Of a stretch of DNA of 64,000 bases, positions 677 through 29,974 are shown piece by piece (the first letter of the stretch is position 1; the number at the start of each line of letters is the position of its first letter). The DNA is from Schmidtea nova. Its lineage: Eukaryota. The notes under the pieces were generated by a model that was not told where the DNA came from, made no database searches, and saw only the letters and a list, made by a program, of their open reading frames with translations. The stretch lies in NCBI GenBank assembly GCA_044892505.1, contig CM097883.1, positions 232,686,001 to 232,750,000 on the forward strand, given 5' to 3'. The translations under genes were made by a program, and so were the position numbers.

Positions 677-954
677 TATTAGGATTTTCATCCTTTGAAA
701 CTTGGCAATCAATTTGTGAGTCGCTAAATGAGTCCATAAAATTTATTTCAACACAATTATTAAAAACTGGTTTTAATTTGTTATGATATTCAAACAATTT
801 ACCATTTTCATTTTTTATTTTCAATTTTTCAATTTTAAATATTTTTTCAATTTTAACTTTTAAATTTAAAATCTTTTCTAAATTTTTAATTTCACATTTT
901 CAATATTTTGTAACCAATAACTTTAAAAATTTTAGAATCTTCCAGCTTCCCTCA
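677..954 (-). repeat. 3' LTR of Gypsy copy 1
   Basis: Direct repeat of 5045-5324; reads TGAGGGAAG...CTAATA on the minus strand. Confidence 0.9.
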
Positions 955-3900
955 TATTCCCCTTCTTTAGAACTTTTTAAAGTTTTTCCACGTTTCTTAC
1001 TATTTTTTTAACATTCTCGTTTATTAAGATATATCGTCTGTCAAGCACTTTCTCGATCACTTTGTAAAGTCCCTCATATATGTTCTGGTTTTTGTTGCGT
1101 GTTTCTAATTTTACTAACACGTCTTCTCCAACATTGAATTTCCTCGTTTGTTCTTTTACCTGTTTTCCTTCAGACTTTAACCATTTTTTCTACTAATCCT
1201 TTTTCCAAAAACTATCTCAGCCGTGCCTTGTCCTGCCGTTTTTTGTTTGGTTGCATTTAATGTGAATTCGACTTCTTGGAGTATCTTTACCCAATCAATC
1301 TTCTTTCTGTCCTATAAAGTAGCATTCATCAGTTCTCGGATTGTCCTGAATTGTCTTTCAACCTGTCTATTTGTTCGATGATGGTATGGACTCTAATAGC
1401 ATAACTTAATATTTAGCTTCTTTATGAATTCTCTCATCATCCCTGGTTCAAACGCCTTCCCGCAAACAACTCTTATCTCCTTTGGGCAGCCAAATTTTAA
1501 AATCCATTTTTCGAAAATTGTTTTCTTTATTGTTTTCTCGTCTTGTCTTGTTATGACTGTCAAGACTTGATATTTACTATACTGATCTATTATTCCTAAT
1601 ATATACTTCCTCGTCCTTTGGTTTCTTGCATTGGTCCACATATATCCGCGAATATAATTTGGAACATTTTATTTGTTCTAGTTTCTTTACTGGTTCTTTC
1701 GTTATTATTGTTATAGCCTTAGTTTTTTGACAAATCTCACAATTTCTAACAATTTACTGAATCTGACTAAACAATGTTTTTCCAAAATATCTATCTTTTA
1801 TATAATCGGCTATCTTCTCGACTCCAGCATGACACAATAGTCCGTGTATTTCCTTTATTGTCTCTTGTACGTGGTGCGGTCAAAAAGTTGCTGGCCTACC
1901 CTACTTAACAAATTGATTTTTTAATGGAAATAGGTTTTCAGGTATCATCGTTTTCTTTTGTACTTCTTCTTCCAAGTTTCTTGGTTGGCTGATGCTTCTC
2001 GCTTCTTCTCTGATCGAGTCTAATAATCTAGTTTTTATCTTCCCTTTCTTAGCTTCTTCATGGGTCATTTGACACTAAGTACATGTGTCACATTTAGTTC
2101 TCCACACAATGTCTACATTTTGGTGATTAACAACCTTTCTGTATTCTACGACCATATCTAAACTGCTTAAATAATTGATCCAGGTTTGGAATTGTGAATA
2201 AACTGGCTTCTTGGTTGTAGATGTAGTGCTTAAATGAATTCAAAAATAGTATATAGGCAATAGTTCCTTTCTTGTAATATAATATCCTTTCTCGTGGCTC
2301 ATCATCGAGTGTGATCCATACGCAATAACTCGTTCCTTTCTCTCTTTCTCTCTTTGTGAAAGTACCGCCCCGATGGCATCAAAACTGGCATCTGTATCTA
2401 AGATGAAATCCTTTCTCAGATCCGGAAAACATAGGATCGGTGCCATAGTAAGAGCTCCCTTCAGTCCCTTGAACATGCTATTCGTTCCATCCGTCCATAT
2501 CAATTTTTTGTTACTCGGGACTCAATTGTTCTAACATCTGGCCTTCTTTGCATACTCGCTGATGAATCTTCTGTAATAATGGCAAATGCCTAAAAATCTT
2601 TGGAGTTTCGTTACGCAACTTGGCTTCCCAAAATTTTGTATGACCTCAATCTTAGAAGGATCTGTCTGTACTCCTACTCTTCCTGATTATGTGTCCTAGG
2701 AATCTGATTTCTTTCTGTAATATTTGACACTTTTCTGGGTTAATCTTTAGTCCTGCTTCTTCGATCACCTTTAACACTTCCCGAATATTGCATAATGTTT
2801 TTCTTACTGCTCGAATAAATCAAGATGTCGTCCAAATACGCCATTGCCCCTATTATATTGCCGATTAACTTTGTCATCATTTCCTGGAACGTACCTGGTG
2901 CTGCTGCAATTCCGAACGACATTCTATTGAAACAGTATTATCCATTATTTGTTGAGAAGGCTGATGTCTCCTGTGATTCTTTGTCTAGTTCAACTTGGTA
3001 ATATGCATTACCTAGGTCGATTGAGCTGAAAAAGACGGCTCTTTCTAAGAAATCCAACATCTTGTATATGTTCGGCATTGGAAATGCCTGTCTCTCTGTT
3101 ACCGCGTTCAGCGGCTTGAAATCCAAGCATAACCTTATATCCTTTTTTTTCTTTTTTCCATACGCATAATAACGGCGTATCCCACGGGGAGTTGCATTTT
3201 CGTATAATCCGTTTTCATACAAATTCTGTATTGCTTCTTCAATCATTGTTTCTAGATTTAATGGTTGACGATATGGTTTAATATTAATCGGTTCACCTCT
3301 TGTAACTATCTTATGTTTAACCAAATGCGAGCGACCAACATCCCATTTATCCGCCATGAACACGTTTCCACTCTTCGTTATTATTTCCTTTAGTTTGCTA
3401 TCTTCATCAATCTTTAGATGTTCCAGAGCTCGTGTCAACCGTTCTTCATCTTTTATTTGTCTGCCGAATTTTGCTTTAATGTTGCAAATATAGTTCTTGT
3501 CTTTTTCATCAGCTTCGATATATTTCCTTTTCGACAACTTATATCCAAATGCTTCTTGTAATTCCAATACTCCAATTAAATCTGGTGTCACTTTCCCCGC
3601 CACAATGAATATAACTTCCTTAAAAATATCTCCATTAGTTACTTGCACCTTTGTTCTTCCTATTGTCTCTATCGTACTCTCGTTTGCGCATCATATTTTA
3701 TCGACACTTCTCATTAATTGTTGTCCTCGTAACTTGTTAAAACAGTTCACACTCATTACGTTGATTCGTGCCCCGGTATCTAATAAACAGTCAAGATTTT
3801 CCCGATTCATCATTACATTTACACTACGTCTTCCGTGTAGCTTGTTATACGCAATATCTACAGTCTGTCCTATTTCAATCGTTCAAATTCTTTCAACATC

Positions 3901-5044
3901 CTCTTCAAAACTTTATCTCCTTAAGAACCTGTATAATTTCTCACTTACTCTTCCTATAACCCCCCCTTTTCTGCCCTTTGAGGATACACCATCAACTCTT
4001 CTGTAAGTATATGGCTCCAACCAATTCCTTCACTGGTGGAGCATAGTTCTTTGAATACGGCTTTCTAGATTTATCTTTATTTGTCTCTAAACACTATTAC
4101 CTTTCCTCTTCTTCCTTGATTCCATTTATCCGATTGCATCTGTTTCCTGTCGGTCTTTGTTTTTCTATCGTTTTACTGTAACTCAACTTTGTATAACATT
4201 CTTCGGATCTATGACCATTTCTGTTGCATCTTTTACACCATATTTTTTGACAAAACCTTCTTATATGACCTTCTTTCCCACAACCAAAACATCTTGGCGC
4301 TTTTTTATTTGGACAATTTCTACTTATATGTTCGTTTCTGTGACACGTCCAGCACTCTACTTTTCCTTTTATAGGACAGTCTATTTTCGTATGGCTCATT
4401 TTGTGGCATAATCAGCATTCTGGTCCTTCTCTTCCACTGCTTTCTTCTCTTTGTTCTTTCTGCTTGTACTGCCCCTCTCTGTGGCTCCTGATGAGCCGCT
4501 TTGGCGTACCTTTTCATGAAGTTTATCAGATCTGTTTGTTTCCACTTTATCCATAAGAATTAGTGTTTCCTTTATTTCTTCTGTGCTTTTTATCTTTCGT
4601 AGTATTACTTCTTTCTCAACTTCTTTATTCTCCGCACATACTATCAACATCTTTGTTGCTACATTCTCTTTGGTGAATTCTTTATTCTCAAATAACCTGT
4701 TCATATTGGCCTCCACCTTTTTAAAGTACGTTTCGATCTCTTCGCCTGTTCGCTTATAATTAAATTAATTTTCCAAATCTTTTATTCTATCTCTTTCATA
4801 ATCAAATGCCATTCATAACCTGTCTGGAAATCCTTCTGCTTTTTTAAGTGTCTTTGCATATGTTTCCAATAGATTCTCATCAATCAGACCTGCTGTTAAT
4901 CTTTCTTGTTCTCTATTATGCGTGATGCCTTAGCATCGAAATAGATTTCGCATCCTTTGATAAACTTCTCCAAGTCATCTTCTTGGCAAAACACCTTTGG
5001 TAGTAATCTTTCGGTGATTGCGTCCGTGTTTACCACTGCCAACA

Positions 5045-5324
5045 TATTAGAATTTTCATTCTTTGAAACTTGGCAATTAATTTGTGAGTCGCTAAATGAG
5101 TCCATAAAATTTAATTCAACACAATTATTAAAAACTGGTTTTAATTTGTTATGATATTCAAATAAATTTACCCTCATTATTTTTTATTTTAAAATTTTCA
5201 ATTTGAAATATTTTTTAAATATTAATTTTCAAATTTAAAATCTTTTCTAAATTTTTAATTTCACATTTTCAATATTTTGTAACCAATAACTTTAAAAGTT
5301 TTTAGAATCTTCCAGCTTCCCTGG
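5045..5324 (-). repeat. 5' LTR of Gypsy copy 1
   Basis: Direct repeat of 677-954, followed 3 nt later by the PBS. Confidence 0.9.
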
Positions 5325-6543: not shown

Positions 6544-6637
6544 ACCGAACACATTTTATGCCATAATTTCCTTACCAGTGGGGGTCTATACTTACAAATT
6601 TATAGTCGACGACAAATGGAGTTATGACAATCAAAAA
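6544..6637 (+). CDS. PRKAB: AMPK beta exon, CBM48 core
   Basis: ttttag / A CCG...; PNTFYAIISLPVGVYTYKFIVDDKWSYDNQK vs human HNNFVAILDLPEGEHQYKFFVDGQWTHDPSE; gtaaat donor; phases consistent. Confidence 0.93.
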
Positions 6638-6848
6638 GTAAATCTTTGAAAATATAATTAATATATAATTTATGTTTTATTACGTTTATCAATTCTGCCA
6701 TTCACCAACATTTATTTTGCCGTTGAGAGATTCTAGAGAGTATTATTATTATTACGCGTACTCGTATTTATTGTATCCGTTAATATGAAAGATTTCAAAA
6801 GGTTTATTATTTATCTACAATATTTAAAAAACTAAGATCTTTTAGATC

Positions 6849-10200: not shown

Positions 10201-11086
10201 TGGATCTTTTTATTTAGGATTGAACACATGGGTTCAGATATTGACATTTTGTTATTCAATTAAATTTGCCTTTTGATTTAAAAAATTTATTAAAAACTGA
10301 ATTTATTAAAATATTTTCTTACAGCTTGATTATATCTATTTTCAAAGCTAGTCTATTAAACTGGTCAGTTTACTGAACACTTTTTAGCGAACAGCTCCAT
10401 AATTAAATAATTTTTTATATAACATTATGGGCGTCTTTAATGTATCCTCAATTTGAAATAATTGTATTTGAAAATTTAAAATTAATATTAATTTTATGCT
10501 AATAAATAAATTTATTATTAATTTTATTATAAAAAAAATATTTTTATTTTTTTATTATAAAAATTTTTTTTAATGTTTTATAATAAATTAATTGGAAAAT
10601 TTTGTATAAAGATTTATTTTAAAAGTTGAATTTTGATACAATTTGAAGATGATTATTATTTATTAAATTGTTTAAATAATTCGTATTTTCTATTATTGAT
10701 TATCCTAAAGCTGACCTGAATAAGACTCTTTTTTCGGTCGAAATATATCGCGTTTATGTTAAATATAATTAGTTGGCGTTTCTCTATTATCAAATAATTG
10801 CCATGTTTTTTTTGATTATTAATAAATTAATTATTAGATATATGTAATTCGCTTCAGACCCATCACTCTCCGGTCAATTCTTAACCCTTTACTTGAACCC
10901 TATCCATTAAGACACCCTTTACCTCTCACACTTTTTAGCATTACGGTTACTACAGTATTACCAGCGTACCGCTGAGAAAAATACCATATACCTCACAAGC
11001 TACAGCAAATTTATAATAAAAATGAAATGTAAAATTTTATTTCAAGTTTTAATAAAAAGTTTTGAAATAATTTGTTTTGAATTCAG

Positions 11087-11221
11087 CCAACCGTCATAAA
11101 TGCATTAGGTACGCCTGAAAATATTATAGAAGTGAAAAAATCGGATTTTAATGTACTTGATGCTCTCCTAAATGATGAAATTGTTGGCTTCAATCCAAAA
11201 AAGAATGATGACATCTATTCG
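11087..11221 (+). CDS. PRKAB: AMPK beta exon, end of CBM48 and linker
   Basis: PTVINALGTPENIIEVKKSDFNVLDALLNDEIVGFNPKKNDDIYS vs PIVTSQLGTVNNIIQVKKTDFEVFDAL; attcag acceptor, gtaaga donor, 135 nt, phase 0. Confidence 0.93.
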
Positions 11222-12629
11222 GTAAGATATATTCGAGTATTTTAAATTAAAACAATCAAAATAAAAATTAATAATATAATAATTTAAAAGTAAAAAAATA
11301 CAAGTAATTAATTTAAAAAATTTTGAATATTTCTAATAAAAGTGTTTTGAACTTTGAATTAAGGGTGAAAATATCTTACCATAATTGCTTAACAATGGAT
11401 CTTNNNNNNNNNNNNNNNNNNNNNNNNNNNNNNNNNNNNNNNNNNNNNNNNNNNNNNNNNNNNNNNNNNNNNNNNNNNNNNNNNNNNNNNNNNNNNNNNN
11501 NNNNNNNNNNNNNNNNNNNNNNNNNNNNNNNNNNNNNNNNNNCAAATTGAGTAATCGTTGTTTTAATGTTGATAATAAAAAAATGGAAAGCAAACAAACT
11601 CAAATACGAAGATGAAAAATTCATTAAATAATAGTCAGCAAGCAATCTCGAATGCAAAGAGGACAGATTTAATAAATATGAAGAAGGAAGAAATTCAAAA
11701 CTCAACGCACCGACATTTTTGTTTAAATAAAATTTTATTATTTATAGTAATTTATTTCAGTGTTACTCAACTTAACAGTGAATCTTTCTCAACACAGCAA
11801 CACTAATGGTGAGGTATTGGTGCTGAATTTAATATTCAAAATGCTATCATCACAAGTAATTTGAAACTTTAAAATTAATTGAGTGTTGTATTTTACATAC
11901 GAAATTTACATGCGAAAACCAAGTGAGAATTGAATGGGGGAGTATCAATGCCTTTATATTAAATACGAAAAAAATAAAATTTTATTATTTATAGTAATTT
12001 ATTTCAGTTTTACTAAAAATGGTGTCAGAACTGACAGCTCTCCAGCATCAGATAGTGAATATTACTCGGTCAATATCGAACATTTCATCGATTCATTCAA
12101 AAGCATCGTCAAAGAAACTACCGGAACTGGTTCAACTATGATATTAGAAGCCTCCACTTTCCAACAAGTTACAGCGAAGCATGTTATAATGTCACGTATT
12201 TTTTATTATATTATTTTATATAAAATTTGATTCGTATTTATTATAAAATTTATTAATTTTATTAATGTATTAATTTTATTTTACTATATATTTATCTATA
12301 AAAATTTTATATACACTCCATCTACCTCGCCCTTATTCCCTGTTTTAATTGCAAACCGCACCCACATTCAAAAACAATAGCCAATTCACAGCAATTATTT
12401 TTCCCCAGAGCTGCCTCCATTACACCAACCTATATCCTTATACGCTTCAACAACATAATAAGCCAAATCTCTATTACCACTGACCTTTACACTGACATTG
12501 CTGCCTCTCTCCACATCGATAAAACGTCTTTTTTATATGCTATGCAACGGTTTCCGAATTTCCTCGATCACGGAGATTCAGCGCAATACCATCGTAGACA
12601 TCCATTGTCGCATCTTAGGAGGTGTGCGT

Positions 12630-13500
12630 CCTGCAGCAGAACCATCTTCCTCGCCCGGATTCCGCCCCATTCTGTTTATTCTAGACCAAAACGGTACACC
12701 TTCGTCGTGGTTTTGCATTTTCGAAGCCCGCGCGTCTTCCTTCCCGAAATCACGCGCAGATCATCTTTTTGACAGTTTACCTGCTGAATTGATATCGGAA
12801 CTGGCACCCAAAATCGCTGAATCCCTAGACTCAGAGAATCAATACGAGAACTTAAAAGCACTCATAATTTCCAAATACACTTTCTTACAGGCACAAGCCC
12901 TGCAAAAACTATTAGCATCACAACGTTACGCAGGCCAGCAACCGAGCATATTTTTGGCAGAGATCATTCGCTCCAACGACACCGCCATACCTGATCTTTC
13001 CAAAAACATACAGCTCTTAAAATACCAATGTACTTCTGCACTTCCATACCACCTACGAACCTCTCTCGCATTGGTAGACTCGGAAGACCCATACCATCTT
13101 GCTAAAATAGCCGATCACATTCACGCACTTCAACCCATAAACCTCGCGCCGATATTTACACACCACCACCACCATCTCCCATCGTGAACGCAACACATAC
13201 ACCTGATAATCCCTACGCTCGCAACGTCGAAACATATTCCAACCACACATCGCCGTCACATAATGTAAAACATCCCAACCACCAACCAACGACAAGCACA
13301 CAAAACATACAACCCAATAATGGCCACAACTAATTTGCTTTTTCCACAACAGATTTAGACAACATGCACATAAATCCTGCATCGGTTGCACGTCCGAATT
13401 CCGTACACACCACAATCCAATAATCCCAGTGTGTATTTACCAACACCTCTACAAGAATGAAGCCAGACCGTGCCTCGGCGGATGCACCTGGCGCACACGT
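12630..13500 (+). pseudogene. CsRn1-clade Gypsy gag relic, unit 1
   Basis: PSSWFCIFEARA...LPAELISEL...QYENLKALII...ALQKLL...GQQPSIFLAEI...LPYHLRTSLA...LAKIADHI matches the recalled DUF7041/CsRn1 gag pattern. Downstream, frameshifted CIYQHLYKNEARPCLGGCTW has C-X2-(H>Q)-X9-C-X3-C knuckle spacing. Confidence 0.8.
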
Positions 13501-14880
13501 GACGTACATCCTTCAAAAAACTAACCCAATCACCAGACATTCCTGGACGNNNNNNNNNNNNNNNNNNNNNNNNNNNNNNNNNNNNNNNNNNNNNNNNNNN
13601 NNNNNNNNNNNNNNNNNNNNNNNNNNNNNNNNNNNNNNNNNNNNNNNNNNNNNNNNNNNNNNNNNNNNNNNNNNNNNNNNNNNNNNNNNNNNNNNNNATA
13701 CATTATATAAGTATATATATTATTAAATTAAATATAGTTTATTTACAAATTGAGTAATCGTTGTTTTAATGTTGATAATAAAGAAATGGAAAGCAAACAA
13801 ATTCAAATGCAAAGATCTCAGTTTCATTAAATAAAAAGCACCAAGCAAACTCAAATGCGAAAATGAAAAATTCATTAAATAAAAGGCAGCAAGAAATCTC
13901 AAATGCAAAGATGACAGATTTATTAAATATGAAGAAGGAAGAAATTCAAAACTCAACGCACCGAAATTTTTGTTTAAATAAAATTTTATTATTTATAGTA
14001 ATTTATTTCAGTGTTACTCAACTTAACAGTGAATCTTTCTCAACACAGCAACACTAATGGTGAGGTATTGGTGCTGAATTTAATATTCAAAATGCTATCA
14101 TCACAAGTAATTTGAAACTTTAAAATTAATTGAGTGTTGTATTTTACATACGAAATTTACATGCGAAAACCAAGTGAGAATTGAATGGGGGAGTATCAAT
14201 GCCTTTATATTAAATACGAAAAAAATAAAATTTTATTATTTATAGTAATTTATTTCAGTTTTACTAAAAATGGTGTCAAAACTGACAGCTCTCCAGCATC
14301 AGAGAGTGAATATTACTCGGTCAATATCGAACATTTCATCGATTCATTCAAAAGCATCGTCAAAGAAACTACCGGAACTGGTTCAACTATGATATTAGAA
14401 GCCTCCACTTTCCAACAAGTTACAGCGAAGCATGTTATAATGTCACGTATTTTTTATTATATTATTTTATATAAAATTTGATTCGTATTTATTATAAAAT
14501 TTATTAATTTTATTAATGTATTAATTTTATTTTACTATATATTTATCTATAAAAATTTTATATACACTCCATCTACCTCGCCCTTATTCCCTGTTTTAAT
14601 TGCAAACCGCACCCACATTCAAAAACAATAGCCAATTCACAGCAATTATTTTTCCCCAGAGCTGCCTCCATTACACCAACCTATATCCTTATACGCTTCA
14701 ACAACATAATAAGCCAAATCTCTATTACCACTGACCTTTACACTGACATTGCTGCCTCTCTCCACATCGATAAAACGTCTTTTTTATATGCTATGCAACG
14801 GTTTCCGAATTTCCTCGATCACGGAGATTCAGCGCAATACCATCGTAGACATCCATTGTCGCATCTTAGAAGGTGTGCGT

Positions 14881-15750
14881 CCTGCAGCAGAACCATCTTC
14901 CTCGCCCGGATTCCGCCCCATTCTGTTTATTCTAGACCAAAACGGTACACCTTCGTCGTGGTTTTGCATTTTCGAAGCCCGCGCGTCTTCCTTCCCGAAA
15001 TCACGCGCAGATCATCTTTTTGACAGTTTACCTGCTGAATTGATATCGGAACTGGCACCCAAAATCGCTGAATCCCTAGACTCAGAGAATCAATACGAGA
15101 ACTTAAAAGCACTCATAATTTCCAAATACACTTTCTTACAGGCACAAGCCCTGCAAAAACTATTAGCATCACAACGTTACGCAGGCCAGCAACCGAGCAT
15201 ATTTTTGGCAGAGATCATTCGCTCCAACGACACCGCCATACCTGATCTTTCCAAAAACATACAGCTCTTAAAATACCAATGTACTTCTGCACTTCCATAC
15301 CACCTACGAACCTCTCTCGCATTGGTAGACTCGGAAGACCCATACCATCTTGCTAAAATAGCCGATCACATTCACGCACTTCAACCCATAAACCTCGCGC
15401 CGATATTTACACACCACCACCACCATCTCCCATCGTGAACGCAACACATACACCTGATAATCCCTACGCTCGCAACGTCGAAACATATTCCAACCACACA
15501 TCGCCGTCACATAATGTAAAACATCCCAACCACCAACCAACGACAAGCACACAAAACATACAACCCAATAATGGCCACAACTAATTTGCTTTTTCCACAA
15601 CAGATTTAGACAACATGCACATAAATCCTGCATCGGTTGCACGTCCGAATTCCGTACACACCACAATCCAATAATCCCAGTGTGTATTTACCAACACCTC
15701 TACAAGAATGAAGCCAGACCGTGCCTCGGCGGATGCACCTGGCGCACACG
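14881..15750 (+). pseudogene. CsRn1-clade gag relic, unit 2
   Basis: Near-identical copy of unit 1. Confidence 0.8.
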
Positions 15751-15814
15751 TGACGTACATCCTTCAAAAAACTAACCCAATCACCAGACATTCCTGGACG
15801 CCCGATGACTTACC

Positions 15815-15855
<41 letters not shown>

Positions 15856-17053
15856 TTTTAAATTATTGTTATACATTATATAAGTATATATATTATTAAA
15901 TTAAATATAGTTTATTTACAAATTGAGTAATCGTTGTTTTAATGTTGATAATAAAGAAATGGAAAGCAAACAAATTCAAATGCAAAGATCTCAGTTTCAT
16001 TAAATAAAAAGCACCAAGCAAACTCAAATGCGAAAATGAAAAATTCATTAAATAAAAGGCAGCAAGAAATCTCAAATGCAAAGATGACAGATTTATTAAA
16101 TATGAAGAAGGAAGAAATTCAAAACTCAACGCACCGAAATTTTTGTTTAAATAAAATTTTATTATTTATAGTAATTTATTTCAGTGTTACTCAACTTAAC
16201 AGTGAATCTTTCTCAACACAGCAACACTAATGGTGAGGTATTGGTGCTGAATTTAATATTCAAAATGCTATCATCACAAGTAATTTGAAACTTTAAAATT
16301 AATTGAGTGTTGTATTTTACATACGAAATTTACATGCGAAAACCAAGTGAGAATTGAATGGGGGAGTATCAATGCCTTTATATTAAATACGAAAAAAATA
16401 AAATTTTATTATTTATAGTAATTTATTTCAGTTTTACTAAAAATGGTGTCAGAACTGACAGCTCTCCAGCATCAGAGAGTGAATATTACTCGGTCAATAT
16501 CGAACATTTCATCGATTCATTCAAAAGCATCGTCAAAGAAACTACCGGAACTGGTTCAACTATGATATTAGAAGCCTCCACTTTCCAACAAGTTACAGCG
16601 AAGCATGTTATAATGTCACGTATTTTTTATTATATTATTTTATATAAAATTTGATTCGTATTTATTATAAAATTTATTAATTTTATTAATGTATTAATTT
16701 TATTTTACTATATATTTATCTATAAAAATTTTATATACACTCCATCTACCTCGCCCTTATTCCCTGTTTTAATTGCAAACCGCACCCACATTCAAAAACA
16801 ATAGCCAATTCACAGCAATTATTTTTCCCCAGAGCTGCCTCCATTACACCAACCTATATCCTTATACGCTTCAACAACATAATAAGCCAAATCTCTATTA
16901 CCACTGACCTTTACACTGACATTGCTGCCTCTCTCCACATCGATAAAACGTCTTTTTTATATGCTATGCAACGGTTTCCGAATTTCCTCGATCACGGAGA
17001 TTCAGCGCAATACCATCGTAGACATCCATTGTCGCATCTTAGGAGGTGTGCGT

Positions 17054-17920
17054 CCTGCAGCAGAACCATCTTCCTCGCCCGGATTCCGCCCCATTCTGTT
17101 TATTCTAGACCAAAACGGTACACCTTCGTCGTGGTTTTGCATTTTCGAAGCCCGCGCGTCTTCCTTCCCGAAATCACGCGCAGATCATCTTTTTGACAGT
17201 TTACCTGCTGAATTGATATCGGAACTGGCACCCAAAATCGCTGAATCCCTAGACTCAGAGAATCAATACGAGAACTTAAAAGCACTCATAATTTCCAAAT
17301 ACACTTTCTTACAGGCACAAGCCCTGCAAAAACTATTAGCATCACAACGTTACGCAGGCCAGCAACCGAGCATATTTTTGGCAGAGATCATTCGCTCCAA
17401 CGACACCGCCATACCTGATCTTTCCAAAAACATACAGCTCTTAAAATACCAATGTACTTCTGCACTTCCATACCACCTACGAACCTCTCTCGCATTGGTA
17501 GACTCGGAAGACCCATACCATCTTGCTAAAATAGCCGATCACATTCACGCACTTCAACCCATAAACCTCGCGCCGATATTTACACACCACCACCACCATC
17601 TCCCATCGTGAACGCAACACATACACCTGATAATCCCTACGCTCGCAACGTCGAAACATTCCAACCACACATCGCCGTCACATAATGTAAAACATCCCAA
17701 CCACCAACCAACGACAAGCACACAAAACATACAACCCAATAATGGCCACAACTAATTTGCTTTTTCCACAACAGATTTAGACAACATGCACATAAATCCT
17801 GCATCGGTTGCACGTCCGAATTCCGTACACACCACAATCCAATAATCCCAGTGTGTATTTACCAACACCTCTACAAGAATGAAGCCAGACCGTGCCTCGG
17901 CGGATGCACCTGGCGCACAC
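17054..17920 (+). pseudogene. CsRn1-clade gag relic, unit 3
   Basis: Near-identical copy with an extra 2-bp deletion near 17657. Confidence 0.8.
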
Positions 17921-17985
17921 GTGACGTACATCCTTCAAAAAACTAACCCAATCACCAGACATTCCTGGACGCCCGATGACTTACC

Positions 17986-18074
<89 letters not shown>

Positions 18075-18526
18075 TTTTAAATTATTGTTATACATTATAT
18101 AAGTATATATATTATTAAATTAAATATAGTTTATTTACAAATTGAGTAATCGTTGTTTTAATGTTGATAATAAAGAAATGGAAAGCAAACAAATTCAAAT
18201 GCAAAGATCTCAGTTTCATTAAATAAAAAGCACCAAGCAAACTCAAATGCGAAAATGAAAAATTCATTAAATAAAAGGCAGCAAGAAATCTCAAATGCAA
18301 AGATGACAGATTTATTAAATATGAAGAAGGAAGAAATTCAAAACTCAACGCACCGAAATTTTTGTTTAAATAAAATTTTATTATTTATAGTAATTTATTT
18401 CAGTGTTACTCAACTTAACAGTGAATCTTTCTCAACACAGCAACACTAATGGTGAGGTATTGGTGCTGAATTTAATATTCAAAATGCTATCATCACAAGT
18501 AATTTGAAACTTTAAAATTAATTGAG

Positions 18527-19040
18527 TGTTGTATTTTACATACGAAATATACATGCGAAAACCAAGTGAGAATTGAATGAGGGAGAATCAATGCCTTTAT
18601 ATTAAATACGAAAAATCATGATCGAAGATAAAATCACTATTAAAATAAAGAGAAAAATTTATTAGAAATTATAATAAAACTCCCATCGAAATTTCATTAA
18701 AATTAACAGAGATAGGATTAAAAATAGAATTAGAATGGATTTGGTTGTTTGAATCAACCAACACGCGCAAAATGACTCTATGTTGAATACACACAGTTTT
18801 ATTAGAATTAATAACAAATATTTAGAAAATAAATTAAATAAATTGTAGAGTTAATCTTTTCGAAAAATAAATAAATAATTCATTTATTAAGATAATCATT
18901 CAAATTCAAGTATAAATTTCTAAATTTAATTCACATAATGAACAAAATCCGTAGATGTGACATGAAAATAGTATAAATAGAACGTTGAAAATCATAATTT
19001 AACATACTGTTTTGCGAGGAGACGCTTGGTAACACCATTA
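18527..19040 (+). mobile_element. Truncated LTR relic (family L, copy 0)
   Basis: Shares the GAGAATTGAATGGGG block, AT-rich blocks and TATAAATA (18972) with the copies at 19641, 26750 and 27902. Confidence 0.65.
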
Positions 19041-19640
19041 CTGGCCATCATCAGTGTTTATACATTCTTGTGTAATGATTATTATTACATCGGAACTAGT
19101 ATCTTTTGAAATATGTGTAACTATTAATATGGAAGTTTTCTATGTAATATTTAATCAAACTTTTGAAGTAGATATTTTGTTTGTGTTTTTGTTCATTTTA
19201 ATGCTCTGTCTTAATTGATTTCCCTATTAAATGATTTGAATAGAGTGAGTCTAAAGTTTAAACGGTCTTTCGGGACTTCAAAGTTTACTGTCCTAGGGAT
19301 GTGGCTTCAGTTCGCTGTGAGTAACCGACAGGATGGCGGCCAAGTGAAAAAAGAAAGTGCCTACTAAGTATTTCTTTCCTTTATCTACATTCTTCCTCAG
19401 CTTAATCATCTTTTCATAATTTAATTAAATTAAACATTCACACAATATGATAAATACTAATTTTCTCGATTTTGTGTAAGTTTTTATTTTATGTAATTCT
19501 CAGCGCTTCGATAATAGATTTACTTTAAACCGATTTTTGGTTTCTTTATCCTTTTCTTACAATTTTCTGGATATTTGATAGCATTTAGCAACTCTAGTCT
19601 GTATGGATGAGGGATGGGCTTAATATAATATTCATGCATG

Positions 19641-20941
19641 TGTTGGGCTGGCTAAATCGAAAATAAAATTTTTTTTGAATTCATCAAAAATTAAAAAGGA
19701 ACAAGTTTAGAAAACGCGCGATAAAACATTACGCAGTAAACTAACGCAAAAGAAAATAAAACAGTAAAGTACAATAGTAATCATACCAACCGCATTCGAT
19801 AAGTCGGTCAAGATAGAGCTTAAACGACAGAAAAGAGGCATCTCAAAAGGGAGCCCGCAATTCGAGTGCAGGTCGCATTTACACACGAAGGACCGCGCGA
19901 GAATTGAATGGGGAAGATCATTACTGGTTTAAAAATAAAGCAAAGCATGATAAAAGAATAAAATCGACATCAATTTAAAGAAAATAATTTATTAAAAATT
20001 ATAGGAAAAATCCCCATTGAAATATCGTAAAAATAACAGAGGTAGGACTCAAAATAGAATTCAATTAAAGTTGATTGTTTTAATCAATCAATAAATGTAC
20101 ACACACATCATTTATCTGAATTAAAATCAAATATCTTAGAAATAAATAAATTAAATTATAAAATTAAATTTACAAAAAAATTAAATAAATAATCGGTTAT
20201 TGAAACAAATAAATTGAGTTTCAATCATAATATAATCAATTGAATGAAAACATGCGTGGGTGTCAGTCTAGTTTAGTATAAATAAACGGAAAAAATCAGT
20301 TGAATTAACTCAGTTAGTTTCTGCAAGTTAACACCAAAATTTTGATTTCGTGTTTCGCCAGCCAGTCGCGTAGTTGAGTAGGTTTGGTTTGTGTATGGTA
20401 ATCTGTAACCATGTTATGTGAATGGTAGTCAATAAATATTTCGAATCATACATTTATGATTAATTGTGGGTAAACCCTCATAACAGCCGGGGTAAATTCG
20501 ATAAGGGCATGTCCTGATGGTCTCGCGACCTGATGGGCAATAAATGGCCTCTTGTCCTGACTCTCCTTGGATAGTTAGGCGATGCGGCATACTTGAACCA
20601 AATTTGGGCGAGAGGAAATGGGAGTGCCAGGAGCATTCATCGTTTTGGTGAATTAATTGGAAAGGAATAAAGGTATAATTTTGATAGCGAAAAGTAATAG
20701 ATCGAAAATAAAGCAGATGCGTAAGTCCTTCTACGGCAGCAAGAACTCGAAAGAGAGGATTTATTGAGGATTAGTTTCGGCAACGGAGCTCACCTGATCA
20801 CTAGATTCTCGCCACCGTGTATAGTACCAACATAGTTATTTGGGGAGTAACTATGGGTACAGGTATGTGATTGAGTAATATTTTTGTTGCGGTGTGGGTT
20901 GTATTAACCCATAGAAGTTCGTAATAATTTTTGTAACAACA
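19641..20941 (+). mobile_element. Solo LTR (family L, copy 1), TGTTG...CAACA, BEL/Pao- or Gypsy-like
   Basis: TGTTG and CAACA termini, TATAAATA at 20277, AATAAA near 20431; blockwise homology to the other copies; no TSD seen. Confidence 0.7.
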
Positions 20942-21827
20942 CCGATACCATCCAACACATGGCACGGCTCTGGCGAACTTTGCTCTGGAATGCGTACCAA
21001 TTATAATAGAAATACATGGGTAACGTTTACTAGCTGAATTTCAACTTGTTACTCCAAAAATATGATAATCATAATCACCTTTTCTCTCACTCGTTATTCT
21101 AGTTTATGTGGCATCTCACAATTTGGGTTCAATCTTTGATTCAGTTCATGAAACTATTCAAAAGAATGCCTCTGCAAACTTCTTTTAAAGTGTACTTGTG
21201 AATGTTTATAAATGATTTTAAATATCTTCCCAGTTACTACCCAGAGTTGACCTCGCATTCCACTCGGTAGAGATTGTTAAGTTTTGGGTTACCCAGTAGA
21301 TCTTTCGCCGGCATCAGCCACTTACTATACTTCCTTTCCACGGGCCAAAAAGAGTCTCTCAAGCCGATAAATTGTCTTTCGAATCATTTCTGCTAGGGTC
21401 ATGTGTCATTAATTTACTTCTTGCATGAAGTTCTTTGAATATGTCAGAAATTAAATCTGAGATCGGAATCTGCAAAAATTAAAAAGTTAAAACATTTAAA
21501 ACATTTAATAAATACTTGTACAGAAGGAATCATTTGGGAACAAACCGACTACATCAAAGAAACAAAATGGTCACCAATCGGTGTGTAACCAACTGTTATC
21601 CGAATAAAATAACAAATAACTAACCTTTGAAATGCTTTTAAAATTGGTTCAAAATTTTGGTTACAAAAAACTTAACTTCAAAGTGTATTTGTGTCAGTAT
21701 ATATATAATAAATTTTTGTGACCTTGAATTGTTGTATTTTAAAAACTGAAATGTCATTTATTTCTTCTTATAATTTTTATTATTTTTTTCTTTTAAAATT
21801 TAATTCTTAATAATTTAATAATGTAAC

Positions 21828-22048
21828 TACCGGAGTTTACCGAAAATAAGACCAGGGCTAATATTTAAAAAAATGGGGTTTTTCAAAAAAAATAAAAAAT
21901 CCAAAAATAAAACTTCGGTCTACAGTGAAATACCACTACTCTGATTGTTTTTCATCTACTCAATGATTCAGTATAATAAACTATGTTAATTTGTTTAAGT
22001 GAAAAAATAGCGATCTTTCGCGGGGTCTTATTTAGGTAAACTCCGGTA
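21828..22048. mobile_element. pogo/Tigger-type MITE
   Basis: TIR CCGGAGTTTACC(GA/T)AAATAAGACC at both ends, flanked by TA. Confidence 0.85.
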
Positions 22049-22199
22049 ATCTTACATTTATTTCTTAAAATAATCACTTTTATTTAATTATTTTCAATTT
22101 AAATTTTCATTATAAATATTATTATGTGATATTTTCAAAATTAACTTTTTATATATTTTTAAAATAAATATTTTGTTTGTCCTAATCTCGACTTGCCCT

Positions 22200-25178
22200 T
22201 AGTCTTCTAGGGTTTTTGAGTTATTTCATATGTATTTTAGTGTTTAATTATTGCAAATTTTTGTTTTATTTAAATTTCAAATATGTTTTCATTTCAATTA
22301 TGTACTAATTGTCATATAGTTTAGGGGATTTATTAGTTTTTTTGTTTCAGATTTTGAATTGACTTTGTATGCGTGTTCAGTTGTTGGGTTATCGTGTCAG
22401 TAAAACAAATTTGACCCCTTGCTTTCCAGACGAAATGATTGAAATCGCTAGGGTTTTGGCAAAACTCTCCTTTAATAAGACATTAAATTGAGCTAAGAAA
22501 CTTCTGAAATTTTTGAGGTTGATGATTGTCCTAACGGATTTCACCTATTCAAATTTTCAAAGTTCAATAAAGGCCTCTTAATTGTACAATATTAAGCTAT
22601 TGTTCGATTAAATTAGTCTCAGATTTCGTCATTGTTTAGCAAACAGTAACTATATTTTCTGTCTTCACTTGTATTGAATATTTAATTATTTAATTGATTT
22701 AAAGCTATTAAGAGACATTATCAAAGTTCGCTTTCTAGTTTCTTTGCTAAGACACCAAAAGTTGTTACAGAGAAAAACGATTCTGAACATAACGTCGAGT
22801 TACCAGTGGCTGACAAAGAGGAAGAAAATGAACAGAACGAGGAACACAGCGCTTGTCAAAACCCAGATGATGATATAGAGTCTTATTGGCGATCTCAATT
22901 AAATGACAACGAAAAAATAGATGCTTTGTGCAAGCTTAAAAATCCTCCACCTCACTTCAGTTTCCCAACAGTAATGAAAGGTTCAACGAAGCGGAAATTT
23001 AGTTATCACTGGCTGGGCGAGTTTGATTGGCTGGTTTACTCGGTTGCAGGAGGTGGACTTTACTTCAAATTTTGCTTTTTGTTTGCGATCGGAGATCAAG
23101 TTGGATCACTGCTTGTCAAAACACCTTTCAAGAATTACCAAAAGTGCCGGGAAACTTTCACTGACCATGCAAAAGCGCCGTACCATTTACGATCAGTTGA
23201 AACAGCAAAAACTCTTCATGTTATCAACAAAAATCCTGAAATAACCATTGAAAGACTGTTGACGAGGCAGAAAGAACTTGAACGAAAGCAGAATTTTGTT
23301 CTTTTGAAAGAAATTTTTGACATCATCAATTATCTCACTCGACAGTCGTTACCGTTCCGAGGACACAGAGATTCTGGTGGGATCTTCAACGACCAAAAAC
23401 GGCATCAACGACGGAAACTTCAGAAATCTGATTAGACTTCTTGCTTCGAGGGACGAGGTTTTCCGGAATGCATTAGAAAGTTCGCCGAAAAATGCTATCT
23501 TCTTAAGTAGTACAATGCAGAACGAAATAATCGTCATGATGAATGAGATTGCGTTGACAAAGCTTCTTCAGAAAGTGAAAAAGTCCGTATTCTTCTCTAT
23601 TCTTGCCGACGAGTCATCGGATGTTTCCGGAATAGAACAAATGTCGATTGGACTCCGTTTCATCGACATTGATGACGGAAATATTGTTGAAGCGTTTTTA
23701 ATGCTCACAGATTTGGGCGATGTCACTGCCAAAGGACTTACTGACTCATTGTTAAGCGGAGCAAAAACGATGAAGCTACGAATGGAAAAGTGTCGAGGAA
23801 TTGGCTTAGGTGGAGCAAGAGTGATGAGTGGAGACAAATCAGGCGTTTCGGCAATAGTTCGCCATCAATTTCCTTTAGTTACTTACGTACATTGCTTCAG
23901 TCATCGATTGAACTTGGTCATTGGAGAAAGCTGCGAAGTAAAGCAGATAACTCTGTGTCTTGTCACAATTAAAAATATCTACAACTTCTTAAACTTACCG
24001 AAAAAACAAGTTAAATTTGGCAAATCTATCGAGAAAACAACACCGGAAACTTCTAGGAGAAAGCTAAAGAACACTTGCGAAACGCGCTGGGTTGAACGTC
24101 ACGAAGCAGTCAACACTTTCTTCGAACTTCTTGAGCCAACAATTGACGTTTTGAGTGTAATTGCAGAATGGAAAGCTCAAAGTCTCCTCAACACAGTGTC
24201 GACTTTCGACTTCATTATCTCTCTTGTCACATTAAAATTCGTGTTCACTTTTACCCTTCCGTTAAGTCGGCTTCTGCAATCGCCTTTAATAGATTATAAC
24301 ACTGCTATTTCATCGGCCAATGATCTCATCGAAAAGTTTGAGACGGTTAGGCAGAACAGTAAAGAAAACTTTGAAACCTTATTCAAAGAAGCATCTGACG
24401 TTGCATCTTGCTTTGAAATTGAAATTTCATTGCCGAAAAATAGAGGAAGGCCGAGATTGGATGGAATGAACTTTAACTTTAGAATTTTATTTAAGTTTCC
24501 TGTTCACCCCGCTGTTGAATTCAATTAGTCGAGAACTCTAAGAAAAATTTCGAGAAAACGCAGTGCTAGCAAATTCCAAAAATCTTATGTTCAACCCTGA
24601 GTGGCTGTTAAGCGGCGAAGTTCAGAATAGTCTTCAGCAACTTTACCATTTCTACACAGAAGATTTGAACGGATCACTGCAGTTATTTTTCGGTGAAGTT
24701 GAGATGGGGCATAAAAGACTGGGAAATGCAAATGTAAAACCTCAAACTGCGATGGACCACCTAAAAACATGCCCTCAAGATATGTTTCCTAACGTGTTCC
24801 AATTACTGAAAATCTGTATTGTAATTCCTGTAACAATTGTTGACGTCGAACGCTCTTTCAGCAAAATGAAACAACTTAAAACGGACGACAGAAACACGAC
24901 AGGAGAGGAAAGACTCAATGGACTAATGTTTCTGAGCATTCATCGTGATACCGAAGTTTTGTTTGAAGAATTTATATACGAGTTCCGCAAAGGAAAACGT
25001 CGACTTGATGTGTGAATTCCTTAGATCAAGAATAAATGTTATTGCTGAGTTTAGAGATACTTAAGAAATTTATTTGAAATTGCTAGGGTTTAGAAGGCAA
25101 ATATTTATTAGGAATTCCTAGGGTTTTTCGGATGAAAAAACATTTTGCACCCCCCCTCCAAAATTTCTGGCTACGCCA

Positions 25179-25181
<3 letters not shown>
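22200..25181 (+). mobile_element. hAT transposon (ZMYM1/PRKRIR-like DUF4371 + hATC transposase), frameshifted
   Basis: ORFs 22806-23435, 23317-24528 (FSILADESSD, YVHCFSHRLNL, CETRWVERH) and 24563-25015 (VERSFSKMKQLK). Right TIR ...TTTCTGGCTACGCCACTG ends at 25181. Subterminal CTAGGGTTT repeats occur on both sides. Left TIR not found, so the left boundary is approximate. Confidence 0.9.

Positions 25182-25243
<62 letters not shown>
25182..25243. repeat. (TA)n microsatellite; others at ~15820-15850, 17990-18068, 48024-48076, 48748-48810, 52511-52593 and 62311-62334
   Basis: Seen directly. Confidence 0.95.
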
Positions 25244-25247
<4 letters not shown>

Positions 25248-25354
25248 TCAACTTTTTTTTATTTTCAGAGTTAGTTGCAATATAATTTTTATTTTATCAT
25301 TATTTTCAACTTTTGTAATATTCATGAAATTTAGTTATAGATTTCTAAATTTAG

Positions 25355-25462
25355 AGTTTCATTCCTTTGAATAAATATACAAATGCTATTCCTGACTACG
25401 ACAATGATCTAGATTTTAGAAGTTTTGTTGCTCCACCCATTCCCCCGTACTTAGACCAGAAG
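25355..25462 (+). CDS. PRKAB: AMPK beta exon, start of the alpha/gamma-binding (ASC) region
   Basis: SFIPLNKYTNAIPDYDNDLDFRSFVAPPIPPYLDQK (cf. RAPPILPPHLLQ); AG/GT ends, 108 nt. Confidence 0.85.
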
Positions 25463-25502
25463 GTACAAATTTTGTAGAAAACTCTCATTCATAAGCCCTT
25501 AG

Positions 25503-25595
25503 GTTATTATTCAAAATGATTTTGAATGTGATGACCCAACGCTTTTGCCAACGAAACATGTCCTATTCAACCATATACTCACCCATACTTTAAAG
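25503..25595 (+). CDS. PRKAB: AMPK beta exon, ASC domain
   Basis: VIIQNDFECDDPTLLPTKHVLFNHILTHTLK (cf. VILNKDTGISCDPALLPEPNHVMLNHLYALSIK); follows a 40-nt GT-AG intron. Confidence 0.92.
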
Positions 25596-26417
25596 GTAAA
25601 ATCAATTTTGTTTTCTTAATTATTATGTTATAGTAGCCACAAGTATATACAGGTAGGTCTCTTATAATCGTAAAATTGTGTAGATAAGTTCCACTTTTTG
25701 CATAATCTCTAGTACTCTTTTTTGTGGACATTTTTCATAGATAACCATTACGTATTTTAATTTTGTAAAAGGACGTACTGAAGATTGTACATGAGTAAAG
25801 ATTATCTAGACAATTTTATGTGTTAAGGAATTTCAGCTGCTAAACAATTTTGCACATCTCAATAGTCATTTTACTGCACACTCTAACATCTATCCGGATC
25901 AAGAAAGAAATAGTTTTAAATTCGAGGAAAGTTTCGTTAGATAATTCAAGATCTTGATGACCTTTAACAGTAACATTAAATGAGAAGGTTGGTTCATTAA
26001 TGTCAAATAAACGTCAACCTCAACAGTCTACTGAACAACTTGATTCAGATCTACTTATCAGTTATAAAAGTATCCATAGCATATTATAGAAGAAGGGGTT
26101 TAAACTTAACCTGTTTGAAGCATCATTGCTCAGTAGAATGAAGAAGTTCTAGGAATTATTATCAAAGCAGCAATTTCTGCGGAAAGCTTCACTGGTTCAT
26201 TTCTAGTTAATCTTGTTATAGAATTCTTTTTGATCCTCTGATTGATGCTTGTTGTAAATGCAAATGTGCTAACTTTTAATAGAAACATACATTTTTTTCA
26301 ATAATTTATTTACATCTAGAACAAATGAAGCTTTTTTTCTGAAACTTAGCGAGATATGAACTGGGGTACCCGTTTTCACTTAAACATTTATTTGGTTTCT
26401 AATAACAATAATTTCAG

Positions 26418-26495
26418 GATAACATAATCAGACTTGGATTTGTGACGCGATTCCGGGATAAAATTGTAACAACAATATTTTGCAAGCCGATTTAA
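26418..26495 (+). CDS. PRKAB: AMPK beta last exon
   Basis: DNIIRLGFVTRFRDKIVTTIFCKPI* (cf. DGVMVLSATHRYKKKYVTTLLYKPI*); tttcag acceptor. Confidence 0.92.
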   Translation, partial: DNIIRLGFVTRFRDKIVTTIFCKPI

Positions 26496-26749
26496 TTTAA
26501 ATGATATTCTTTTTCCACATTATTTTGCAGTTTGAATAAATTTATTTATTATTTTAAAATATTTGTGGTATTTTCTTGGTTTTACTGTGTGAAACCAATT
26601 ATATTATTTTATTAATTTTTGTAAAAAACCTACCCGATGAATCAAAATTTGCCTTTTTTGTGAAAAAGCACATTATGGTGAAATTAAAACCATCGGAATT
26701 TGATATAAACGATTCTAAATTCGTTTAATGAATGAAAATATATATACAT

Positions 26750-27901
26750 TTAAGTACAAATAGTAGTCATACGAACAGCATTTCATAAGTCGGTCGAGAT
26801 AGGGTTGAAACGATAGAAAAGAGGCATCTCAAAAGTGAGCGTACAATTTGAGTGCGGCTCGTATTTACATCCGAAGGACCGCGCGAGAATTGAATGGGGA
26901 AGATCATTGCGTATATTAGGAATACAGAAAGCATGATCAAAATGAAATGGGTATCAGAATAAAGAAAATAATTTAATAAAAATTATAGAAAACATCCTCA
27001 TTGAAATATAGTAAAAATAACCGAGACAAGAATAAAAAATAGAATAAATTAAATTTAAATGTTTCAATCAATCAATTAATGTACAAGAAAAACAATATAT
27101 ATATATACATCATTTAACAGAATTAAAACAAATATTTTAAAAAATAAATAAATCGAATTATAAAATTAAATTTACAAAAAATAAGCAAATACTCAATTAT
27201 TAAAAACAATAAGTAAGTTTAATCGTTAAAATCATTATTTAAATAGTAATATATGTGAGCGTCAGTAGATATAGTATAAATAGAATCTGAAAAAGCACAA
27301 AAATCTTGCTTGACACTAAATTTGTAGTGAATAAAATTTAGTATTTCGCCAGCCAGTCGAGGGAATTAAAGTCTGATTTTGTGTTTTATTTGATGTTAAT
27401 GGTTGGAGTAACCGTTTTGTAGTTTTACAATAAATTTATTTAGGTGAATTGTTTTGATTTTGAATTGTGGTTAAACCCTCATTTTTCTACCAGGGTGATC
27501 TAGCTAAATTGCGCCTCAGTGGTTGTTGATCATGGGTGAAAGCTTCTCGGTCGTGACTCTTTCGAGGGTTGGGTCGATGTGGCTACTTTGAACCAAATTC
27601 TGCCTGGAGAAAAAGGGAATTATACATAGACATTCATTATTTTGGTGAAACATTTTAAAAATTGATATATAATTTTTAAATATGAATAAAGGCAGATATG
27701 TGATTGCATAGGGTAGTAGAGAATTAAATGTAATTATGTGAGAGGACCGTAAAGTAAGCAGATGCGTAAGTCCTTCTATCGGCTCCAAGAACCCGAAAGA
27801 GAGAATATAGTGAAAAGTAGTTTTGGCAACGGAGCTCTGCTGCACACTAGATTCTCGCCATCGTGTACAATACCAACATAGCTACTGTTGGGAAGTATGG
27901 G
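26750..27901 (+). mobile_element. 5'-truncated LTR (family L, copy A)
   Basis: Homologous to 19765-20870; TATAAATA at 27275. Confidence 0.7.
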
Positions 27902-29362: not shown

Positions 29363-29453
29363 TTACTTAGGGAATAACTATGGGTACACGAGTATAGTAG
29401 ATTAATAGGTCGTATTAACCCCTAGAAATCGTTAATAAATTTTTATAACAACA
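29363..29453 (+). mobile_element. 3' end fragment of LTR family L
   Basis: gggaataactatgggtac...ATAACAACA matches 20845-20941. Confidence 0.65.
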
Positions 29454-29974
29454 CCTATAAACAATATTTAAATATCAAAAACCTCTACCATCTAAATTAT
29501 TTTTTTGATTTTAACAATTTAATTTTTTATTATTTCAATTTTTTTTAAAACTATTTTAACAAAATATTTAATTTTTAGATGAAAACACTTAACATTCATG
29601 AAGTGTAACAAATTAAGTTATATTTATGTCTATTGCTTTAATTTATTCACACTTTCTTTAGTCATATAAATCTTTAATAAAGACCTTGCGGCCTGAAATT
29701 TCTCGTTTTAAACATAAAAATTCGCTATAAAACCATTCAAATTTTGCGCAATGTCTTGATAAATCGAAAGAATAGCAAAGTATAATTTGTAGTTTTGAAT
29801 AATTATATCATTGCAAGATTTGTACAATAATACTACTTAGTGTAAGTTTATTTCATCATTGATCTACCTCTGTAAATATTTCGCTATCATATTGTGTCAA
29901 ATTTGAAGAACAACAAAAACGAAATTAATATTGAAAAATATTAATTTAAATATAGAGTTCTGGATTCGTAGAAT

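Follow-up and report, generated by a model that had tools for sequence, protein, structure and literature searches.

Three near-identical copies of a decayed Ty3/gypsy element beside AMPK beta exons of Schmidtea nova were probably multiplied in place

The tandem array considered here lies at positions 11543-18615 of a 64,000-nucleotide stretch of the Schmidtea nova genome (GenBank assembly GCA_044892505.1, contig CM097883.1, positions 232,686,001 to 232,750,000, forward strand; hereafter the window), downstream of two exons of an AMPK beta gene, and alternates three internal blocks (Y) with four flanking blocks (X). We conclude, with a probability of roughly 0.85, that it consists of three near-identical copies of a decayed, pol-less Ty3/gypsy long terminal repeat (LTR) element, each with 200 bp of the element's own 3' flank, and that they are not a mobile composite but were likely amplified on the spot by homologous exchange once a single illegitimate joint had formed. 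The array represents a clear but commonplace kind of local rearrangement that started from a dead LTR element, and single-nucleotide differences in it record the successive steps: a solo-LTR crossover, an illegitimate joint and recent unequal exchange. No function is needed to explain it. The parent family is more remarkable, as its capsid gene might be joined in frame to a membrane protein assembled from host exons.

Composition of the array

Self-alignment of the window, from which all periods and blocks were taken, resolves an X-Y-X-Y-X-Y-X arrangement with unit periods of 2251, 2173 and 2219 bp, as described in the initial annotation of this sequence. The genome searched measures 1.25 Gb and has three very large contigs. 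That annotation regarded each unit as a fusion of four unrelated pieces, namely an exon-like ~500-bp module X, the first ~90 bp of a neighbouring LTR (family L), a gag without pol and a terminal (TA)n tract. Of 2459 candidate loci for Y, 40 were scored, and 37 of these lie elsewhere and are 85-93% identical to it. All 37 were fetched and are normal LTR elements: the LTR starts with TGTAGT, continues with a (TA)n tract and 48-bp repeats and ends in TTACTA(A/C)A, two bases then precede a primer-binding site (PBS), and a polypurine tract (PPT) lies ahead of the 3' LTR. All 16 copies with both ends located, among 52 loci examined, have a 5-bp target-site duplication (TSD), perfect in 15 of them; a length of 4 or 6 bp fits none of the 16. 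The features of an LTR retrotransposon (two direct LTRs, PBS, PPT and TSD) are thus all present in the parent family. Because the TA tract, which is a component of the LTR in other copies too, occurs there together with the seemingly exon-like 48-bp repeats and with Y, the three belong to one element. Y is the interior of a dispersed, pol-less Ty3/gypsy LTR family, and X is the element's own LTR, including its TA tract, followed by the TSD and by ~200 bp of host flank (197 bp after the TSD). The annotation correctly recognised a non-autonomous LTR element with gag, and units that hold no pol; the four unrelated pieces and the exon-like module dissolve into this one element and its flank.

The last 90 bp of that flank do come from family L, as had been noted, but the description of family L as an LTR finds no support. 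The last X does not run into an intact LTR relic at 18527-19040; the sequence there lacks the 5' part of a longer high-copy repeat, other copies of which share at least 250 bp of homology further upstream. A ribozyme element was also considered for family L, and no Rfam match was found in 11000-30000. More family-L pieces lie at 19749-20957 and 26731-29263 of the window, two of them inverted.

Joints and differences among the units

The 5 bases before the LTR start at 11406 recur directly behind all four LTR ends, and block X1 is a single complete LTR between two TSD copies, the structure of a solo LTR. As had been observed, it is the most diverged X: it has one 48-bp repeat fewer and 10 substitutions relative to X2-X4, all of them located up to 11714 (10 of 172 sites, followed by 0 of 56). 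The 45-bp LTR stub before each PBS differs at 2 sites from the LTR ends in X and carries the family's 5'-LTR ending; for comparison, the LTR pairs of other old copies are 3.2-7.0% apart (three measured). This pattern of differences between X1 and X2, together with those of the stub, indicates that X1 is a 5'/3' recombinant LTR and that the stub preserves the terminal part of the original 5' LTR.

Two joints set the array units apart from their relatives. Joint J1, between host flank and stub, sits in an A run; among 40 scored of 422 candidates, only the window copies cover the flank, the matches of the other 36 beginning at the LTR portion. At joint J2, about 733-750 bp are missing, the PPT and the LTR start among them, and the 24-nt pattern of J2 has three occurrences genome-wide, all within the array; no PPT was found in the genome record of the array (L001-L003). 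Within the array, LTR and PBS are separated by a TSD, 197 bp of host flank and the LTR stub, unlike the arrangement in a shared-LTR tandem. Over 1575 bp of interior, the units are separated by 1-3 substitutions and a single 2-bp deletion, and each of these changes is confined to one unit. The flanks are identical in X1-X3 and differ at three sites in X4 (Table 1), and the lengths of the TA tracts vary between units.

Origin of the array

These differences are consistent with a short series of local events. A ~3-kb non-autonomous copy would have inserted with a 5-bp TSD and then decayed by four frameshifts and by the J2 deletion of 3' interior, PPT and LTR start; the traces of both steps are still in place. 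A crossover between the 5' and 3' LTRs would have given the solo-type X1, and a short-homology joint would have connected position +200 of the flank with the final 45 bp of a 5' LTR. Both products are present in the array; for their order we propose two possible routes to X1-Y-X. In route A, the segment from stub to flank was duplicated in tandem and a deletion between LTRs then removed the first interior; in route B, a single switch of template led out of a solo-LTR allele and into a full-length one. Finally, as X1 and X2 are identical over ~190 bp, unequal exchange or re-entry of a circle could recently have expanded the single unit to three. If X1 and the last X recombine within the ~190 bp that they have in common, X2-type LTRs with X1-type flanks and a distinct terminal flank result, as is observed, and the X1-type LTR alleles place the first exchange downstream of 11714. 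With 4 changes in three units set against 12 in 217, amplification may have taken place at roughly one-fortieth of the insertion's age. The order of decay before amplification, already proposed in the annotation, holds, given that the stop at 13185 and a knuckle change in gag are common to all three units.

Selection could have kept the amplification because the units encode a 98-aa chimeric membrane peptide or a truncated Gag, or because the AMPK beta transcript would contain a small-RNA source; this alternative appears improbable. J1 brings an ATG of the flank into frame with a hydrophobic stretch of the LTR, the PBS and a cargo remnant, forming a 98-codon open reading frame (ORF); the array is in sense orientation to the host gene, and the frames are open in all three units. 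However, the units are too alike to be independent and an in-frame joint is a one-in-three chance; the ORF probably arose by chance. Neither is there a signal of selection on gag, which has four frameshifts (Table 1) relative to 6/6 relatives, plus a stop in the upstream frame, and whose private changes (5 synonymous, 11 not) give a nonsynonymous-to-synonymous ratio (dN/dS) of 0.69 (p=0.56). These results argue against the truncated Gag that had been envisaged. The longest open gag stretch (12462-13187, 241 codons) lies between two breaks in the middle of gag and is not the open N-terminal frame previously reported; the stop at 13185 is out of frame. The open stretch was chosen after the fact, and a frame equally long or longer is open in 13 of 19 old-type matches. 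A profile search with this stretch did return DUF7041, the gag domain that had been suggested for it, with an E value of 1e-4 that falls under the cut-off. Downstream, the window units carry two CHCC-type knuckles, at 13336 and 13432, with one ligand changed in each; the His>Gln change in the second is shared by all units, as annotated, and the position is His in 25 of 29 relatives.

It is improbable that the three units are an assembly artefact of one, even though they are 99.8% alike, TA tracts are hard to sequence and no contig spans the array. The genome record crosses the array without any N, so that the gaps reported at the unit junctions do not exist there; the N stretches at unit borders in the window are not assembly gaps, and record L002 shows no difference from the window at unmasked sites. 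Private changes mark each of the units, and both flank types occur in short-read contigs. Four public runs (labelled X1 to X4, like the blocks) provide sequence as contigs; their records give no library type, adapters can be seen in them, and coverage holes prove nothing. No RNA run is among the holders listed, which tells nothing about expression. In sequencing run X1, a 243-nt contig fits the array-type flank without a difference, at a depth of 28.6 versus 9.0 and 10 for single-copy neighbours. The depth is thus about threefold, although contig depth does not equal copy number and gives no true count of units. In sequencing run X3, a 201-nt contig (18533-18733) takes the terminal-type flank into unique DNA. 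We regard the short-read contigs as supporting, not decisive.

The annotation also raised the option that unequal exchange at the (TA)n tracts gave rise to a macrosatellite, which is similarly improbable. Local unequal exchange as such fits our reconstruction, the TA tracts differ in length between units, and two units could have become three through exchange at TA. As the first step it fails, because the X1-type alleles behind the TA tract of X1 never enter X2-X4; moreover, the TA tract belongs to the LTR in other copies, and J1 does not lie at a TA tract. Least probable is the mobile non-autonomous composite using X as a pseudo-LTR: the array does start and end with X, a PBS and a gag remnant are present and shared-LTR tandems of the partner family exist in the genome, but X holds a true LTR, a TSD and single-copy host flank, Y is dispersed while J1 (among the 40 candidates scored) and J2 occur only here, the only TSD is that of the original insertion and, as reverse transcription cannot copy a unit without PPT and LTR start, a unit from which both have been deleted cannot retrotranspose.

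Some observations nonetheless count against multiplication in place as reconstructed above. The search for J1 scored 40 of 422 candidates. The flank differences between X1 and X4 are clustered, with 0 in the first ~190 bp and 3 in the last 67, a pattern that would have to come from conversion or chance. The gag stretch that stays open in the units (198 codons in this comparison) is open in only 3 of 35 relatives. The contig of sequencing run X1 extends past J1 by 25 letters only, short of the 31-letter criterion for crossing it, and the array-type flank is not covered in runs X2-X4.

The parent family and its defective lineage

The family from which the array derives is large and young. A search with gag gave 7432 first-look candidates, of which 150 were scored and 15 stretches fetched. 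Several of these are autonomous, with gag, an overlapping pol encoding reverse transcriptase, RNase H and integrase, and LTR pairs up to 99.8% alike; their PPT, PBS and AA end are as in the window's family. Pfam places the partner's pol domains in the order RVT_1, RT_RNaseH, Integrase_H2C2 and rve, and a DTG protease motif is read upstream; by this protease-reverse transcriptase-RNase H-integrase order the autonomous partner is a Ty3/gypsy element. LTRs are of the form TG..AA in 15 of the 16 copies with a TSD, young autonomous ones included, and older copies show CA.

The PBS is complementary over 11 nt to the gene of a tRNA with a CAA anticodon, an intron and a long variable arm, read directly in locus L076. 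ARAGORN left this tRNA unnamed or misnamed it. A first tRNA pattern had no match, and the five dispersed matches of a looser pattern gave no tRNA by ARAGORN; the tandem tRNA locus did yield one. L076 (G000:C2:300.51-300.60 Mb and beyond) is a long tandem of tRNA Gly-Leu-Gln units with a period of ~900 bp, and the pattern has 803 matches genome-wide.

Four young pol-less copies (L048, L052, L053, L059) share one deletion joint and spacer length with the window's old family, and the joint recurs in the old copies L011, L012 and L033. The pol-less spacer measures 685-688 bp versus 604-625 bp, with one old copy at 674 bp, and is 97-98% alike among young pol-less copies, 84-89% to the old family and 73-76% to autonomous copies. 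In gag, by contrast, the young pol-less copies are 93-99% like the autonomous ones. Because the spacer groups the pol-less copies together while gag groups them with autonomous copies, one old pol-less defective lineage has persisted and recombined with its autonomous partners. Splicing was considered as the origin of the pol-less copies and rejected: the joint has shared letters of its own and no GT..AG fit, and the spacer groups these copies together. Nor are they TR-GAG-like, a type with gag only and no pol remnant, as in undeleted copies the first half of protease is retained and runs into the final pol codons. Shared-LTR tandems of the family were seen twice: an autonomous one with a period of 5804 bp (L056/L057, G000:C1:356.82-356.84 Mb) and a pol-less one with a period of ~3483 bp (L126, G000:C1:142.27 Mb).

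Comparison with known systems

A close likeness is to the CsRn1-like elements PwRn1 and AgCR (PMC2582038), from which we take the definition of the CsRn1 knuckle, the tRNA-Trp PBS and the 4-bp TSD of PwRn1. The parent family has the CHCC knuckle CX2HX9CX3C, twice per copy, and its autonomous partner has the gag/pol overlap in the -1 frame, the same order of pol domains and a GPY motif. It differs in a PBS for tRNA-Leu instead of tRNA-Trp, in a TSD of 5 instead of 4 bp, and in its two knuckles, LTRs ending in AA and an ORF1 that opens in the LTR and carries cargo; no match named CsRn1 was among the 120 listed in a homologue search. To judge from its sequence, the family would work like a CsRn1-type gypsy element but lacks the tRNA-Trp and 4-bp TSD features, and we do not count it within that clade.

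Tandem arrays of LTR elements that undergo unequal exchange have been described (PMC7215508). The three-LTR arrays of Cassandra and BARE1 show the same LTR-internal-LTR periodicity, and their copy number shifts by unequal crossing-over once a short array exists. The present units, in contrast, carry a TSD, 200 bp of host flank and a separate LTR stub, which is why we attribute the array to an illegitimate joint and not to LTR recombination between elements or template switching within a particle.

In the soybean SNRE/SARE pair (PMC3701649), as here, pol-less copies have the LTRs and gag of current autonomous subfamilies; in the planarian family, however, one old deletion joint and spacer recur across subfamilies whose gag is 25% apart, and gag is swapped along with the LTR. 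The same source describes non-canonical ends in other amplified LTR families (TARE1, TA..CA; Tos17, TG..GA), to which the present one adds TG..AA in 15 of 16 copies with a TSD, in a gypsy-type animal family. The giant planarian gypsy element Burro/GYPSM1 (PMC6431247) likewise has a gypsy polyprotein with host-like extra domains; it has an N-terminal Gag, CCHC knuckles and a 25-kb interior, whereas the parent family measures 3-7 kb and carries its cargo in front of Gag. Lastly, sORF2 of the MDG1 group (bioRxiv 10.1101/2025.03.14.642691) is a membrane-protein stretch upstream of gag in an envelope-less gypsy element, as is predicted here. It is a separate, myristoylated, fusogen-like ORF of 70 aa, and FAST-like proteins are small, separate and myristoylated with a short ectodomain; the stretch in the parent family has 200-370 codons in frame with Gag, a signal-peptide-like start and host exons.

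A cargo-bearing ORF1

ORF1 of the parent family opens inside the LTR and passes through the PBS into gag in one frame, so that some 200-500 additional codons stay open ahead of Gag. The 285-521 codons before the gag motif are free of stops in 8/8 young elements and in 0/500 shuffles of each. Forty further copies were picked for long, differing ORFs, which is a bias; a PBS was found in 39 of them, the PBS-gag distance is a multiple of three in 36 of these 39 (9 length classes, 3 cargo types) and the frame is open through the PBS in 30. Without selection for length, 93 of 128 young matches have frames of at least 586 codons. Hydrophobic stretches of unrelated sequence lie at the LTR end and before Gag. 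This layout (signal-like start, variable cargo, hydrophobic stretch, Gag) was seen in L048-L054, L059, L077-L116 and L120-L131.

The cargo often derives from immunoglobulin (Ig) domains. Host multi-Ig loci without a PBS (L117/L118) match one cargo at ~90% identity in blocks with gaps of 42, 48 and 3 nt, the first of which begins at an intron donor and stops 3 nt before the acceptor. All 12 dispersed Ig matches sampled from 150 scored have gag behind the Ig piece, and a PBS is present in 11; many dispersed copies have a whole Ig domain and, judged by eye, a signal-peptide-like start, and the window units retain 76 nt. The cargo source comprises near-identical host Ig exon-intron tandems with a 372-375 bp period (L117-L119, G000:C2:411.50-411.53 Mb, and C2:412.68 Mb). 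An LTR of the young subfamily also holds an RPL6-like exon piece at L049:1089-1226 (Pfam PF01159, E=2e-6, above the cut-off).

We tentatively suggest that ORF1 might be a type I membrane protein fused to Gag, with an LTR-encoded signal peptide, an exchangeable ectodomain captured from the host (often Ig), an anchor and a cytoplasmic Gag, with particles that would assemble at membranes bearing the host-derived domains and with the pol-less lineage riding along as a long-lived defective partner; we would hold this as a possibility with somewhat worse than even odds. Alternatively, T-rich DNA without stops (a U-rich element behind a poly(A) signal, or intron read-through as in P0124) may account for the two hydrophobic stretches as a side effect, as such DNA reads hydrophobic by itself. 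Many young copies are without the Trp-bearing strand of Ig domains, which speaks against a membrane function, as does the nonsynonymous-to-synonymous polymorphism ratio (pN/pS) between host and cargo of 0.51 (p=0.05), a value that cannot separate the two lineages. Searches for the cargo among longer proteins and in the ESM Atlas found nothing. In the literature searched, outside which most subscription papers lie, no signal peptide, Ig cargo or N-terminal extension on a gypsy Gag was described, and we found no description there of a cargo-bearing ORF1 opened in the LTR. If ORF1 is translated as predicted, an envelope-less retrotransposon could display host surface domains on its particles, for targeting or disguise.

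Host gene and other features of the window

Two AMPK beta exons lie upstream of the array on the same strand (Table 1), in support of the annotated location in an AMPK beta intron. The downstream border depends on 25355-25463, which by its splice phase, and by a presumed likeness to AMPK beta, is the probable next exon and would close an intron of ~14 kb; Pfam and PDB searches gave no confirmation. A search for AMPKBI matched two other loci and nothing in the window, the PDB search with 25355-25463 returned chance Kelch designs only, and a homologue search with the upstream exon 11087-11221 found none.

Table 1. Positions in the window of the array, its parts and the neighbouring host features
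Feature	Position	Strand	Remarks
AMPK beta exon (glycogen-binding module)	6545..6640	+	Pfam PF16561, E=3e-8, above cut-off
AMPK beta exon just 5' of array	11087..11221	+	AG/GT bounded; phmmer against PDB AMPK beta chains, E=1e-4
TSD copy before X1	11401..11405	+	identical 5/5 to the 5 bases after each of four LTR ends
X1, complete recombinant LTR, solo-LTR-like	11406..11770	+	start motif at 11406; 5' part from original 5' LTR, last ~56 bp from 3' LTR
TSD copy and 197 bp host flank, array type	11771..11972	+	includes first ~90 bp of family-L relic; same in X1-X3
98-codon chimeric ORF over J1	11934..12230; again at 14185 and 16358	+	no Pfam match
Joint J1, host flank to stub	11972/11973; also 14223, 16396	+	at this locus only, among 40 scored of 422 candidates
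LTR stub, last 45 bp of original 5' LTR	11973..12017	+	2/45 differences from 3' LTR end
PBS	12020..12030; also 14271, 16444	+	11 nt complementary to tRNA-Leu(CAA) 3' end + CCA
Captured host Ig-domain exon remnant, PBS-gag slot	12099..12174	+	80% over 76 nt, E=1e-15, to multi-Ig locus L117
Decayed gag	12360..13540	+	frameshifts near 12400, 12530, 13130, 13325
Unit 1 (stub-PBS-internal-J2-truncated LTR-TSD-flank)	11973..14223	+	2251 bp
Unit 2	14224..16396	+	2173 bp; J2 at 15819/15820; LTR 15820-16194
Unit 3	16397..18615	+	2219 bp; J2 at 17990/17991; LTR 17991-18413; TSD 18414-18418; terminal-type flank differs from X1-X3 at 18549, 18580, 18586
Family-L relic, 5'-truncated piece of longer high-copy repeat	18545..19004	+	2685 candidates, 73-80% identity
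Probable next AMPK beta exon	25355..25463	+	AG/GT bounded, in phase

Several other elements share the window. Two decayed gypsy elements of another family (CCHC gag, reverse transcriptase, integrase) lie in opposite orientation at 677-5322 and 32381-35799; they are 73-75% alike, and the first has 93% identical LTRs. Two transposase remnants at 22698-25012 and 56552-57940 are, from their translations, presumably hAT-like. A unit of 110 bp is present in seven copies with 99% identity at 59918-60689.

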